DNA from: a virus
Strand: one strand, 5' to 3'
UHGV virus genome: UHGV-0187309
Length of the DNA: 44,350 nt
Every line of letters begins with the position of its first letter. Position 1 is the first letter of the stretch. Under the pieces are notes generated by a model. It saw only the letters and a program-made list of their open reading frames with translations. It searched no databases and was not told the origin of the DNA. Made by a program: the position numbers and the translations under genes. Of this stretch, positions 3,956-21,632 are shown in pieces.

Positions 3956-4097
3956 GAATGTATGGGATAGTCAATCCTCAAAACGAACAAATATTCTTAT
4001 TGAAATCTGTGCAACCCTACAAAGTTTATCAAAGACTTTTCAACGCTGAAAACGTTAGAAATGCGAAATTTGGCGTAGGCATTGCATCTTTGATCAC

Positions 4098-4126
4098 ATT
4101 ATAGCACACAATCGGTGTTTTGTCAA
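4098..4126 (-). promoter_or_regulatory. Repressor promoter (TTGACA-17-TATAAT on minus strand)
   Basis: Reverse complement of 4098-4126 reads TTGACA, 17 nt, TATAAT with TGn extended -10. Confidence 0.6.
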
Positions 4127-4131
4127 TACAA

Positions 4132-4147
4132 AATTGCACTTGCAATT
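4132..4147. promoter_or_regulatory. Palindromic candidate operator AATTGCA-CT-TGCAATT overlapping the -35 of the rightward promoter
   Basis: Perfect 7 bp inverted repeat with 2 bp centre, located between the two divergent promoters. Confidence 0.5.
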
Positions 4148-4168
4148 CGTTTGACGGTGTGATATAAT
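4140..4168 (+). promoter_or_regulatory. Rightward promoter (TTGCAA-17-TATAAT) for the ImmA-like gene
   Basis: TTGCAA at 4140-4145, 17 nt spacer, TATAAT at 4163-4168; about 200 nt leader before ATG at 4370. Confidence 0.55.
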
Positions 4169-4369
4169 AGCAATGTCGGTATTCCGCCTACAGGAAAATG
4201 AGACCGAAGGCTGGTGCAGTGTGTCCGTCTTAAGGTGTGTGACAGGACAGACTGCCGGTCAGAGTACCGACAACTTCGCCATCAACCCACTTCGCCACGA
4301 TAGATATACAGAACAATAGAATGGAGCTAATGTTGGAAATACCATAAGTTGCGAAACAGGAGGGCGTAA

Positions 4370-6298
4370 ATGACTATATATCTTGATAGAGGACCGTTTC
4401 TCACCATTCCCGACAAGCTGCATTCGGGGCAGTACAGAGTGATCCGCAACCCCGACTGGCACGGAGTACTGCCGGAGATCGTGTCCTTCACCGATTTTCT
4501 CAAATGGAATTACACACTGGAGTATGGTCAGTATATCCGCAAATTGCACTACTACCACCAGCTTCCGCTGCCGTGGGTCGTTCCACAGGATGCCGAGATA
4601 GAAACTGTCATCATCGAGGAAGGCAGATATGACCGCATTGATCACAATTCCTTTGATATGTATGTGATATGCGATGTCGTGTTCGAGATGAACGGCTGCC
4701 GGCAGTGCCAGAAGTATATCGTACACGGCTTTTACTGCTCTTACGGCGGTTCAGACTTTCTGTGCGGTGCGGAGCTCTACAATGGTCAGTTTATCCGGCT
4801 GAACAATCCCTTAGATGAGTTTCTGGTTCCCATCCTTTCAAAGAAAGAATTTGCAAGCATTGCACAAGCAATCATCGACCACTACTATTCATACAAATCG
4901 AATTATCCCTGCCGCATCAATACTGCTTCAATTGCAAAGGCAATGGGTCACGATATAAAGTATGCCAGACTGTCAAAAAACGGAAATGTCAAGTCCAAGC
5001 TGATCCTGGACAAGCGGGATACGACCGTCTATGATAAGGAATACAAAGCTGTCAAAATGCGGATCGACAGTCCTACGATCCTTGTGGACGAGTCATTGGA
5101 GGAGGATGAAGCGCAGAACGCCATTATTCATGAGTGCGTTCACGCTTACCTTCACAACCTCTTCTATGAGCTGCAGAGCTACTATCGGAAAATGGTCGGC
5201 AGGAAGATGCCGGAGTTCAATGACTACTTCTATTCCAAGACGCAGCGTAGCTGCCTGAAATGGATGGAAACACAGGCAAATGCCATCCCACGCTTTATTC
5301 AGATGCCGGAGGAGCAGGCATCCGATGTCATCCTGAACTTCTTCGAGCGACTCCCCGGAGAGCCTGACTGGGACGATTACAGAGAACTGATCGACCTTGT
5401 GAAATGGAAGTTCGGAGTATCCCGCAATGCTGCGAAGAAGCGTATCATTGAGCTTGGCTGGCCGGAGGTGCGCGGTGTGTATGTCTACAACACCACAGGA
5501 TATGTTGAGGACTACGATGTAGAGCTAAGATTCCCGCAGGACTATACCTATACACTGTCATTCCGCCAAATCTCTGATGTGTTTGCATCCTGCGAGACCT
5601 TCGCAGAGCTTGTCCGTTCCAAGAAGTTCATCTATCTGGACGGTCATGTTGTGATCAACAGCGACAGGTATATCCGCAAGGAACACGGCTTAGCTATGGG
5701 CTTGACAGAGTATGCTAGACACCACATGGCAGAGTGCTGTCTGGATTTCAAGCGTATCTACGCAGAATTCGACTACAGCTATACCTATGGCGAGCTACAC
5801 AAGGATGACCTGACCGAGATCACGGCCGAAAACCGTTCGTTCAGCGATGAACAGCGAAAGAAGATCCGCATGGCAATGTATGAGATCACAGAAGAAAACT
5901 ATAAACTGACCGTTCCTTCAGATGTCAACGAATTCGGCAAGGCGGTGCGTTTCCATATGGAGAGATGCGGTCTCACCTCGGATCTGGTTGCAGACCGCAG
6001 CGGCATGGGTGTGAACACTGTCAATAAGATGCGCAGTGGCAAGAGAGTGAAGCTCGAAACAGTGCTAGCTTTTTGTGTCGCTTTGGAGCTTGAAGAGTCG
6101 TTCCGCATTGACCTTATGCAGAAAGCGAAGGTTGATTATGATATGAGCAATCCTGCCCATCGGCTCTATGTCACGATCTTTGAGCTGATGCCGAAGGCAA
6201 ATGTCTTTCAGATCAACGATCTGCTGAAGGCAGAAGGCTTTACGCCGTGGACGAGGGACTGCGAGGAAAAGAAGCGGTATGCTAAGAAAAGTATGTAA
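4370..6298 (+). CDS. Large ImmA/IrrE-like HExxH metallopeptidase-domain protein with C-terminal XRE-type HTH
   Basis: 642 aa; HExxH in IIHECVHAYLH; C-terminal HTH-like segment RSGMGVNTVNKMRSGKRVKLETVLAFCVALEL; AGGAGGG RBS. Confidence 0.8.
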   Translation: MTIYLDRGPFLTIPDKLHSGQYRVIRNPDWHGVLPEIVSFTDFLKWNYTLEYGQYIRKLHYYHQLPLPWVVPQDAEIETVIIEEGRYDRIDHNSFDMYVICDVVFEMNGCRQCQKYIVHGFYCSYGGSDFLCGAELYNGQFIRLNNPLDEFLVPILSKKEFASIAQAIIDHYYSYKSNYPCRINTASIAKAMGHDIKYARLSKNGNVKSKLILDKRDTTVYDKEYKAVKMRIDSPTILVDESLEEDEAQNAIIHECVHAYLHNLFYELQSYYRKMVGRKMPEFNDYFYSKTQRSCLKWMETQANAIPRFIQMPEEQASDVILNFFERLPGEPDWDDYRELIDLVKWKFGVSRNAAKKRIIELGWPEVRGVYVYNTTGYVEDYDVELRFPQDYTYTLSFRQISDVFASCETFAELVRSKKFIYLDGHVVINSDRYIRKEHGLAMGLTEYARHHMAECCLDFKRIYAEFDYSYTYGELHKDDLTEITAENRSFSDEQRKKIRMAMYEITEENYKLTVPSDVNEFGKAVRFHMERCGLTSDLVADRSGMGVNTVNKMRSGKRVKLETVLAFCVALELEESFRIDLMQKAKVDYDMSNPAHRLYVTIFELMPKANVFQINDLLKAEGFTPWTRDCEEKKRYAKKSM

Positions 6299-6312
6299 TA
6301 ACGGCATTTTCA

Positions 6313-6337
6313 GGAGGCTTTCGAGCCTCCTTTTTTT
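6313..6337 (+). terminator. Rho-independent terminator
   Basis: GGAGGCT-TTCG-AGCCTCC hairpin followed by TTTTTTT. Confidence 0.8.
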
Positions 6338-6946
6338 ATGCCCTGAAATATTTTCATGAAGCCCCCAGAAAAAATGGGGGCGATTTGCGTTTTTGAAATA
6401 GTTTAGAGACAGAATGTTCATAGAATATCCATTTAATTTAGATGATATGAACAAGTGAAGATGATATATCAAAGTTGAGATAAGCACAGTGCATAAAAAG
6501 CAGCCCCCATTTTTTATGTATGTAAAAGAAGATTCGGATATGTTATGATATAGACACGGTCAAGGACAGGCACCACCTTCCAAGACTGAAACACCACAAT
6601 GCCGGATGCATACGGCAGAGGATGTTCATATGATATCTGAACAGAATGCCATAGGTATACCCTGTGGTCGGAAGCCGATGTCATATGTCTACTCTGTGCT
6701 ATGCATCCGGCTATTTTTTTTGCCGCGGCATTCGGAGCATGGCAATTAGATCATTACATTTGTTAGTCAGGGCGCGCACTGGCGGACAGATGCTCATAGC
6801 GGAAATAACATCACGATTTGGAGTCTGTATAGACTGACAAGGTGTATTTCGTGTGGACATCGTCCCCTGCGTGCCTTTTTCTCTGGGACAGCAGTCGCGT
6901 TATGGGCATCTGCCGCTTGGTGTGTTCCTTGCAGAAAGGAACGATT

Positions 6947-7669
6947 ATGGAAAACGCAAATGTTCAGAATGCTGCCGCTATCACCGATAAGACCACCCTC
7001 GGCGAACTGCTTGCAATGCTTGACCTCGCTGATAAGGCAGGCAAGATGCCGACACCGAGAGAACTGTTTGAGACTGCCGGTTCGCCGATAGCCGATATGA
7101 ATGGCTGCACTCTCTTCAGCAACGGCTTCGCCATCTATCAGAATGTCACTGGGCGCACTGTTGTCTGGCTGCCGTACTGCAAGAGCTTCACCTATTACTT
7201 CGGCAAGCTCCGTGATTCCGAGAAAGACACGCTGACAGAGACCTATGAGCTGCCGGATGGATTTCTGGAAACACAGCCGTGGGTGATCGCAGTAACACTG
7301 ATCGGCGACCATCGTGTGGAGGCAAACAGCATGAACCGCACCGGCAGCCGCAAGGATACCACAGATTATGACAGCGCCGATAACGGCGATAAAGACGGTG
7401 ATGCAGAGGAGGCTTTGGCAGATCCGTATCGCAGGGCATTCAACTGGTATGACGGACGCATGGGCGAGAATCCGCAGGATGCCGTGGAGCGCAGAGAGAC
7501 ACGCGAGGAGATGCTTGCAGACATGACGGACAAGCAGCGTGAAGCCTTTATTATGTACTTCAGGGATGGTATGACGCAGGAAGAGATTGCTTCATATATA
7601 GGGGTAAGCCGTGATTCCATAAATGACAGGCTTGAAGGTGCTTTGAAAAAAGCAAAAAAATATTTTTAG
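6947..7669 (+). CDS. Sigma-70 region-4-like DNA-binding regulator
   Basis: C-terminal QREAFIMYFRDGMTQEEIASYIGVSRDSINDRLEGALKKAKK resembles sigma region 4 HTH; start at ATG 6947 (AAAGGAAC RBS) rather than the longer ORF start at 6842. Confidence 0.7.
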   Translation: MENANVQNAAAITDKTTLGELLAMLDLADKAGKMPTPRELFETAGSPIADMNGCTLFSNGFAIYQNVTGRTVVWLPYCKSFTYYFGKLRDSEKDTLTETYELPDGFLETQPWVIAVTLIGDHRVEANSMNRTGSRKDTTDYDSADNGDKDGDAEEALADPYRRAFNWYDGRMGENPQDAVERRETREEMLADMTDKQREAFIMYFRDGMTQEEIASYIGVSRDSINDRLEGALKKAKKYF

Positions 7670-7711
7670 GATACCCACAAAAAGACCTCTCCCACGACAG
7701 TATATGAGAGG
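7669..7711 (+). repeat. Copy 1 of a ~43 bp direct repeat (GGATACCCACAAAA-GCC-CTCTCCCACGACAGTATATGAG-GGG) containing a hairpin
   Basis: About 90 percent identical to 21496-21537; both copies lie just 3' of a gene end and are preceded by an A/T-rich run. Confidence 0.7.
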
Positions 7712-7806
7712 GCTTGAAAAGAAACCAAACCGCAAGCGGCTGCAAAGCCCTCGCAGCCGAACCATTATTACATCGGTCGAAAGACCTGAACAGAAAGGAA
7801 ATGCTT

Positions 7807-21495: not shown

Positions 21496-21537
21496 GGATA
21501 CCCACAAAATGCCCTCTCCCACGACAGTATATGAGGG
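21496..21537 (+). repeat. Copy 2 of the ~43 bp direct repeat seen at 7669-7711
   Basis: GGATACCCACAAAATGCCCTCTCCCACGACAGTATATGAGGGG; lies between metK and the HNH gene. Confidence 0.7.
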
Positions 21538-21632
21538 GCGTTGTTCAGACCGACCACAAACACACTACAAACCAAGCGGGACTGACCGCCCCTATCACTA
21601 TGCAACACCACTGTGGAAAGGAGGCAGAGACA

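Follow-up and report, generated by a model that had tools for sequence, protein, structure and literature searches.

A conserved non-coding region ahead of a prophage sigma-like gene: long terminator-type hairpins and a candidate bistable leader

The virus genome UHGV-0187309 contains a gap (positions 6299–6946) between a gene for a 642-aa protein with ImmA/M78-peptidase and HTH domains (4370–6298, plus strand) and a gene for a 240-aa sigma-like protein (6947–7669, plus strand). The gap contains long inverted repeats, which raises the question of what it does. An original prediction, made from the letters of the DNA alone, held that it could encode a small RNA (sRNA) or be a recombination or binding site. 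We analyzed the gap within the whole available stretch of 44,350 nucleotides, here called the window, and in related phage and prophage loci, which are referred to by L numbers. The reading that we favor, with a probability of roughly 0.6, is that the gap is a non-coding cis-regulatory region that gates the prophage sigma-region-4-like gene through tandem attenuators and a bistable translational switch. The element represents a genuine cis-regulatory RNA family, conserved and not catalogued to date; the type of mechanism is familiar.

The original prediction had found no convincing open reading frame (ORF) in the gap, and our analysis agrees. The gap contains ORFs of 47–57 aa and a 140-aa ORF on the minus strand, without a PHROG hit. 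The gap ORFs are broken or frame-shifted in relatives at approximately 78% DNA identity, and no gap ORF is conserved. On these two grounds we regard the gap as non-coding. A scan for tRNA and transfer-messenger RNA genes found none. What is kept in relatives are the inverted repeats: many independent phage contigs preserve, through compensatory changes, both the hairpin described next and the leader downstream of it. Three features had been absent from the earlier account, these being the structured leader (6757–6942), a conserved promoter (6522–6549), and a 39-bp palindrome (6415–6453). The central hairpin, which we refer to as HP1, is the following.

6601–6721, plus strand: HP1, a 111-nt hairpin (6601–6711) followed by a U-tract (6712–6721; TATTTTTTTT, U8).

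HP1 arises from the long-range inverted repeat that had been reported as GCCGGATGCATA and TATGCATCCGGC. We found the two arms at 6601–6612 and 6700–6711, extending to 20 nt at 85%, and they form the base of a continuous hairpin of 111 nt and 38 bp. The RNA has a minimum free energy (MFE) of −57.4 kcal/mol, with a z-score of −6.8 against 200 dinucleotide shuffles, none of which folded as well; the opposite strand folds more weakly (−45.7). The base of the stem is GC-rich (GCCGG/CCGGC) and is followed by TATTTTTTTT, as in an intrinsic terminator. All 22 distinct homologues from IMG/VR are single hairpins of 91–127 nt and 34–50 bp, their apical halves differ entirely in sequence, and each has a T-rich tail 3' of the hairpin on the strand of the flanking genes. 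More than 25 distinct loci in Ruminococcus/Oscillospiraceae phages and prophages preserve HP1 through compensatory changes, and there it always lies on the gene strand between the ImmA-like gene and the sigma-region-4-like gene or genes. In the alignment 81.7% of cells are paired, compared to 31–48% with slid partners; 9 pairs are changed on both sides, and 0 of 500 shuffles reach the covariation score. The covariance model (R1) scores 100.6 bits on the plus strand and 27.9 bits on the minus strand. Many pairs are kept as G-U, equivalent to A-C on the other strand, and the U-tract is present on the plus strand only. These three properties, the G-U pairs, the strand-asymmetric score, and the one-sided U-tract, indicate that HP1 acts as a strand-specific element at the level of RNA.

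Part of the HP1 set was retrieved with the exact word GCCGGATGCATACGG (15 columns). Loci anchored on the protein carry no such sequence-pattern bias, and they also contain GCCGGATGCATACGG or a near variant. The HP1 model recovers the hairpin upstream of sigma-like genes in seven of these protein-retrieved loci (L175, L177, L178, L180, L181, L185, and L186). The same model found no other full copy within the 44-kb window.

Upstream of HP1 we found a promoter signature and a conserved predicted transcript start.

6522–6549, plus strand: P2, predicted promoter of the sigma-A type with an extended −10 element (−35-like GTAAAA at 6522–6527, TG at 6541–6542, −10 TATGAT at 6544–6549).
6554–6600, plus strand: predicted 5' end of the transcript, with the motif ACACGGTCAAGGACAGG, a small hairpin (6557–6565 with 6580–6588), and an A-rich linker AAACACCACAA that adjoins HP1.

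In most loci and lineages the best sigma-A-like site is located 51–67 nt upstream of HP1, and same-strand ORFs follow the hairpin, so HP1 occupies the position of an attenuator. The extended −10 element occurs across lineages as TGnTATGAT, TGnTACAAT, TGnTAAAAT, or TGnTATAAT. Across 13 aligned, divergent loci, T-A-x-x-A-T of the −10 never changes whereas its flanks do, and a conserved CAGTCAAGGAC motif comes next; both CAGTCAAGGAC and a linker of the AAACAAYAYC type recur in divergent loci. Consensus and conservation together predict that P2 is the promoter of the downstream transcript. With a conserved promoter and a terminator-type 3' end, a terminated transcript of approximately 165 nt is plausible. 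The small hairpin in the predicted leader (GUCAG-N8-CUGGC) is conserved and has only 5 bp, and we found no conserved partner upstream with which the 5' arm of HP1 could pair.

What follows HP1 differs among the loci. In nine relatives (L033, L035, L038, L040, L051, L055, L057, L185, and L186) a DUF7768 gene of approximately 140 aa begins about 45 nt past the hairpin. This ORF has its own Shine-Dalgarno (SD) sequence and no promoter is evident by eye between it and HP1, which indicates that HP1 must be read through in these loci. The window lacks the DUF7768 gene and retains a short remnant (GCCGCGGC...). We infer that HP1 of the window is an orphan copy, which would have lost the gene it once preceded and would now serve as an extra upstream attenuator.

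The second structured element is the sigma-like leader. Conservation extends over the 200 nt that precede the start codon, in places exceeding that of the protein, and the leader is organized as follows.

6757–6802, plus strand: leader segment 1, a conserved lead-in CATTTGTTAGTCA (6757–6769) and then AGTCAGGGCGCGCACTGGCGGACAGATGCTCATAGCGG, with two alternative partners; the pairing part is 6768–6795.
6803–6854, plus strand: leader apical hairpin, variable in sequence and kept as a hairpin (AGTCTGTATAGACT in the window, GGTCAGTATTGACC or GGTCTGTACAGACC elsewhere).
6855–6880, plus strand: leader segment 2, GGACATCGTCCCCTGCGTGCC and U5 (6876–6880), the proximal partner of segment 1 (fold A).
6904–6931, plus strand: leader segment 3, GGGCATCTGCCGCTTGGTGTGTTCCTTG, the distal partner of segment 1 (fold B), with the anti-SD at its 3' end (6924–6930).
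6924–6942, plus strand: SD-sequestering hairpin, GTTCCTT-GCAGA-AAGGAAC, with the SD AAGGAA at 6936–6941 and the start codon at 6947.

RNAalifold pairs segment 1 (6768–6795) with segment 2 (6855–6876), after which comes the U5, and also pairs the SD (6936–6942) with the anti-SD (6924–6930); this is fold A. The MFE structure of the full-length window leader (−75.2 kcal/mol) pairs segment 1 with segment 3 (6904–6931), which is fold B. Since segment 3 ends in the anti-SD, fold B releases the SD. A leader RNA ending at the U-tract adopts fold A (−45.8 kcal/mol), the terminator-like end of which is GTGCC followed by U5 in the window. When the two folds were forced in turn, their energies differed by 0–8 kcal/mol in most homologues, the SD being paired in fold A and mostly free in fold B. 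The leader thus has two mutually exclusive pairings of comparable stability, one of which releases the SD.

Both folds are maintained among the relatives. In an alignment of 17 sequences, 96.1% of cells are paired in fold A (SD hairpin included) and 95.9% in fold B, compared to 37–52% in slid controls; with 22 sequences the values are 93.5%, 95.8%, and 37–53%, respectively. The cells of the SD/anti-SD hairpin taken separately are paired at 94% (17 sequences) and 87% (22 sequences), demonstrating that sequestration of the SD is itself conserved. This hairpin covaries, GTTCC/GGAAC becoming GCGTCC/GGACGC in the groups of L010, L014b, L179, and L180. One position in segment 1 (G to A) co-varies with both of its partners, giving an A-U pair in 7 cases with segment 2 and in 6 with segment 3. 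An unsupervised duplex search found a strong arrangement of segments 1, 2, and 3 in most of 20 leaders, including several groups quite different in sequence. The three-way complementarity was weak or non-significant in 4 of the 20 (the first copy in L014, L047, the paralogue-A leader of L180, and L187), and in L011 the arrangement was seen by eye. The extreme conservation of segment 1 is explained by its being held by two partners.

HP1 and the leader appear to be related to each other. The HP1 model matches the window leader at 6768–6887 over its full length (13.7 bits, E 0.07), and it matches the leaders of L014, L017, L047, L092, L179, L180, and L182 at 15–23 bits. The two hairpins have motifs in common, GGATGTTCA / GATGCTCA in the 5' arm and GGACAYC in the 3' arm. 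In L010, L015, L023, and L181, all of them strong cases in the duplex search, the sigma-like gene is immediately preceded by a hairpin of the HP1 type that itself constitutes segments 1:2 of the switch. L180 has an HP1-type hairpin ahead of one sigma-like paralogue and a leader-type hairpin ahead of the next. From these similarities in sequence and position we infer a common origin. Two arrangements of duplicated genes were also observed: in L014 and L180 there are two sigma-like genes, both preceded by a leader hairpin of their own, and L035 and L057 have a second sigma-region-4 paralogue between HP1 and the sigma-like leader.

The first half of the gap, upstream of P2, contains four further features.

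6312–6338, plus strand: T1, intrinsic terminator of the ImmA/M78+HTH gene (8 bp, 5 of them GC, loop of 4, T-run), from a terminator scan.
6361–6394, plus strand: T2, GCCCCC/GGGGGC hairpin (6361–6381) with a U-rich tail GATTTGCGTTTTTG.
6415–6453, strand-neutral: imperfect 39-bp palindrome TGTTCATAGAATATCCATT/AATTTAGATGATATGAACA in an AT-rich stretch approximately 90 bp upstream of the promoter, conserved in relatives.
6492–6518, plus strand: A/U-rich hairpin CATAAAAA-GCAGCCCCCA-TTTTTTATG, which holds an inverted copy (6503–6518) of the 3' half of T2 (6366–6381).

The clean terminator originally seen 3' of the ImmA-like gene is T1, a stem-loop at 6312–6331 with T7. The hairpin GCCCCC-AGAAAAAAT-GGGGGC was likewise found, at 6361–6381 rather than to approximately 6382, with 7 bp and followed by GATTTGCGTTTTTG; T2 looks like a second, weaker terminator. 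T1 is conserved in L003, L006, L035, and L040, and T2 in close relatives, and on this evidence the ImmA-like transcript would end at T1 and T2. An inverted copy of the T2 hairpin does exist as had been described; its position is 6503–6518 and not 6497–6514, and its 16 nt are 94% complementary to 6366–6381. The copy forms the 3' half of the A/U hairpin and abuts the −35 element. The pairing between 6366–6381 and 6503–6518, a 153-nt hairpin (6366–6518), is the MFE structure on the minus strand only, the plus strand favoring local hairpins. The left arm of the 39-bp palindrome resembles the interior of HP1 (6411–6429 and 6619–6637, 84%), and 5 of the 17 ATGTTCATA-like words in the window cluster in 6414–6968. 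The palindrome may be an operator, or a decayed hairpin copy of the HP1 family.

Starting from what was computed here, namely the structures and their strand, the conservation and covariation, the near-equal energies of the leader folds, the promoter signature, and the gene order, we propose the following sequence of events. Transcription of the ImmA-like gene would stop at T1 (and T2). P2 would start a separate transcript near 6554–6558, with a 5' untranslated region (UTR) of approximately 390 nt that carries the two related attenuators. HP1 and its U8 would act as a very long intrinsic-terminator hairpin and halt most transcripts after about 165 nt. In the OFF state, segment 1 would pair with segment 2 to give the second long hairpin with its U5, and segment 3 would pair with the SD. 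Read-through transcripts would hold fold A first, with the SD closed. In the ON state, segment 1 would pair with segment 3, the anti-SD would be pulled off, and the ribosome-binding site would be free. The regulator would then be made only from transcripts that have passed both hairpins and refolded. The balance of this predicted control of translation might be tipped by kinetics, by a phage or host protein, or by RNase III. The leader is a clean case of one strand held by two alternative partners, and it may couple transcription termination to translational activation.

Several observations weigh against this proposal. The generic promoter scan of the gap called no −35/−10 pair; P2 was missed by the scan because its −35 element is poor. 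We found neither an upstream antiterminator structure nor an effector. Segment 3 lies downstream of the leader U-tract and so cannot prevent termination of the same transcript. The U-tract itself is short (4–5 U) and is poor or absent in L035, L051, and L057, where fold A may act mainly on translation. Only 3–4 of 26 leader pairs are changed on both sides, and the matches of the HP1 model to the leaders are weak (E 0.001–0.08). Note that many of the homologues are closely related, and that retrieval of part of the set by an exact pattern of 14–15 nt raises the apparent invariance of the columns concerned.

The alternatives draw on the same structures. One is that HP1 and its promoter constitute a stand-alone gene for a trans-acting phage sRNA, approximately 165 nt from P2 to the U8, which would pair with other RNAs such as the sigma-like leader or host mRNAs. 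A promoter 51–67 nt ahead of a strong terminator is the classic layout of an sRNA gene, no ORF directly follows HP1 in the window, and the 5' arm of HP1 has some complementarity to two segments of the leader, namely 2 (−29.4 kcal/mol, z −3.4) and 3 (z −2.2). However, the 3' arm shows no significant pairing with leader segment 1 (z −1.0), the other cross-pairings are as expected from shared ancestry, and as a trans regulator of the leader HP1 was rejected because the duplex energies are weak. HP1 is moreover almost wholly sealed in its hairpin (−56 kcal/mol) with no conserved single-stranded seed evident, it matches neither C4 nor any Rfam sRNA family, the same hairpin is part of the cis switch in L010, L015, L023, and L181, and in the nine relatives with DUF7768 an SD-bearing ORF without an evident promoter of its own follows within approximately 45 nt. 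The small-RNA idea of the original prediction is therefore borne out in part: the element does act at the RNA level and in a strand-specific manner, with a promoter upstream and a terminator-type 3' end, but the comparative evidence fits a cis-acting attenuator in a 5' UTR better than a trans-acting sRNA, which we consider unlikely. Alternatively, the main role of the long hairpins might lie in RNase III processing or in stability: a cut in HP1, or in the 26-bp duplex of segments 1 and 3, would set mRNA stability or uncover the ribosome-binding site. Their lengths would suit this, the stems being 34–50 bp and the segment 1:3 duplex nearly perfect (−50.9 kcal/mol), and intrinsic terminators rarely need stems so long; T7 R sites, the lambda N-leader, and lambda sib are comparators of this type. 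The U-tract immediately after the GC-rich base is nevertheless universal for HP1 and points to termination, and the switch explains the conserved three-way complementarity without any cleavage. RNase III action as the main function is thus improbable, and it is compatible with, not exclusive of, the attenuator and switch.

Function of the inverted repeats as DNA, in the form of a replication origin or cruciform, protein-binding operators, or a recombination or attachment site, we judge very improbable. The gap does lie just upstream of the replication module, and its AT-rich stretch contains the 39-bp palindrome and the cluster of ATGTTCATA-like words. Against this, pairing in HP1 and the leader is kept through G-U wobbles that are A-C mismatches on the other strand, the model score is strand-asymmetric with a T-tract on one side only, and the arms are 60–100 nt apart with variable spacers. 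The recombination site suggested by the original prediction found no support: within the window no direct repeat of at least 14 nt involves the gap, no copy of any gap sequence that could serve as an attachment-site-like repeat occurs elsewhere, and the integrase-like gene is approximately 5 kb away. That gene (608–1705) has no Pfam hit and is called integrase-like from its position only. The binding-site suggestion survives for the palindrome at 6415–6453 alone, which may well bind a protein. A more specific version of the regulatory reading would have P2, the tandem long terminators, and the bistable leader form a lytic gate, which would provide immunity or timing through termination and would open when a phage protein recognizes the conserved hairpin core GGAUGYUC / GGACAYC. 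Candidates for the opener are the sigma-region-4-like protein, acting at the RNA polymerase flap/RNA exit channel, or the 642-aa ImmA/HTH protein. We regard such a gate as rather unlikely; if it were real, it would amount to a new type of antitermination, dependent on an RNA hairpin and endowed with positive feedback. A riboswitch was considered and is not supported, the apical parts of both hairpins being variable in sequence and length, with no aptamer-like conserved junction and no match to an Rfam class.

The preferred reading, tandem attenuators followed by a bistable leader, has parallels among characterized systems. Leaders that sequester the SD in a bistable manner are known from the alternative structures of lambda cIII mRNA, the fold-back inhibition of hok mRNA, and the long-distance interaction in the MS2 maturation-gene leader. 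Like these, the leader described here has two mutually exclusive, nearly iso-energetic 5' folds, one pairing the SD and the other freeing it, there is no small-molecule aptamer, and kinetics, RNase III, or proteins could shift the balance. Unlike in these systems, the switching strand (segment 1) lies approximately 130 nt upstream and is part of a 110-nt terminator-like hairpin when OFF, so that one gate may control both transcription and translation; the sequences are unrelated, and the element is present in tandem related copies. Intrinsic-terminator attenuators in 5' UTRs include the leaders of the trp/pyr/bgl type, and lambda tR1 is located between the immunity region and the replication genes. 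The gap shares with them the series of promoter, GC-based stem with U-tract, and regulated genes, as well as the location at the boundary of an immunity module and regulator/replication genes. It differs in its stems, which are 34–50 bp rather than 5–15 bp, in that no competing upstream antiterminator was found and the alternative partner is downstream of the terminator, and in that no boxA was found. The lead-in UUUGUUAGUCAG...CUGGCGGACA was considered as a RAT site, as generally described for antiterminators of the BglG/LicT type, and rejected: UUGUUA becomes UUGAAA in L014, L035, L179, L180, and L182 with no compensating change. The P4 CI RNA and the P1/P7 c4 RNA confer immunity by premature termination or translational block through an RNA from the same leader, and they control their own operons. 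A constitutive-looking promoter, early termination, and repeated similar or complementary blocks within one leader are common to these phages and the gap, which differs in having no Rfam C4 hit and only weak cross-complementarity between HP1 and the leader, and is not known to carry a processing signal.

Database searches gave no name for the element. Rfam produced no hit at the gathering threshold in the whole window, and at E ≤ 10 on the gap it gave chance hits only (STnc50 and CRISPR-DR47 on T1, and PhotoRC-I on the wrong strand). The gap was also searched for a nut site of the lambda type, boxA having the consensus CGCTCTTTA; no boxA-like word occurs in it, boxB not having been searched separately. 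A full-text literature search returned no description of the HP1/leader element. A catalogue of structured RNAs mined from the phage contigs of IMG/VR reports 1,241 candidates with predicted Rho-independent terminators and 879 candidates upstream of genes with known domains (PMC10690425). The text of the paper makes no mention of sigma-like genes, and the element may be among the thousands of unnamed candidates of that catalogue (PMC10690425). It could enter RNA family databases and serve the annotation of these prophages.

The gene neighborhood is as follows.

Minus strand: thymidine kinase and a LexA-like CI repressor (HTH + S24).
Plus strand: the ImmA-like gene, the gap, and the sigma-like gene.
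Beyond the sigma-like gene: two small ORFs, a DUF2800 exonuclease, a Gp2.5-like SSB, and a family-A DNA polymerase, and then a helicase, a primase, NrdD, and methyltransferases.

The window is the early region of a temperate phage. The order CI(S24) / ImmA-like gene, HP1, sigma-like gene, DUF2800/SSB/PolA is common to the relatives retrieved via the sigma-like protein, whose genome records are metagenome-assembled genomes of rumen and gut Ruminococcus / Oscillospiraceae, with distant cousins in Lachnospiraceae. A blastn search of the gap against 50,697 GenBank phages gave no match.

The gene predicted to be regulated and its product were characterized by profile searches and a structure prediction.

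6947–7669, plus strand: regulated gene, 240 aa, in which only sigma-70 region 4 is detectable, at the C-terminus.

Resemblance to sigma region 4 is confined to the final 70 or so residues, and the N-terminal 160 or so match nothing in Pfam or among PDB sequences; a profile search of the PDB sequences returned sigma region 4 only. An AlphaFold model based on 20 homologues was unusable, with a predicted local distance difference test (pLDDT) score of 39.9. Among named proteins the closest, with 91% identity, is a 'sigma-70 family RNA polymerase sigma factor [Ruminococcus flavefaciens]', and the family comprises at least 487 clusters. In close homologues (99% and 95% identical, 326 aa) certain gene callers place the start further upstream, within the sequence that would correspond to the leader.

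Positions 7669–7716 and 21496–21543 form a direct repeat of 48 nt at 90% (GGATACCCACAAAA..CCTCTCCCACGACAGTATATGAG.GG). Its core is a 22-nt motif, TCCCACGACAGTATATGAGAGG, with sites at 7691 and 21518, which is invariant or near-invariant. In each related locus in which the motif search detected it, the motif closely follows the sigma-like gene; in several loci GATAC is present approximately 21 nt upstream of the motif. The first copy stands at the start of the DUF2800/SSB/PolA module, the second at that of the NrdD/methyltransferase block. Judging from this placement, the repeat is probably a promoter or target site of the sigma-like regulator, and the sigma-like protein is probably the master activator of this phage group. 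With TCCCACGACAGTATATGAGAGG both after the regulator gene and before a second gene block, silencing or release of the activator would decide between lysogeny and lytic growth, a decision that concerns prophages of major fiber degraders of the rumen and gut (Ruminococcus, Oscillospiraceae).

Other regions of the window contain regulatory features of their own. The divergent intergenic region between CI and the ImmA-like gene (3956–4369) has a near-consensus promoter, TTGACG..N..TATAAT, at approximately 4151–4170, and palindromes of the TTGCA type (ATTGCACTTGCAAT at 4133–4146) that are likely to be CI operators; the gap word ATGTTCATA does not occur there. Between 32000 and 39500, five copies of a cassette of approximately 42–82 nt (GGTAATATGTGACACAACGGAAGGGCAAACGCCC...GGAGGA..ATG) precede successive small genes and look like a repeated promoter/leader module, and several other repeat families are present.

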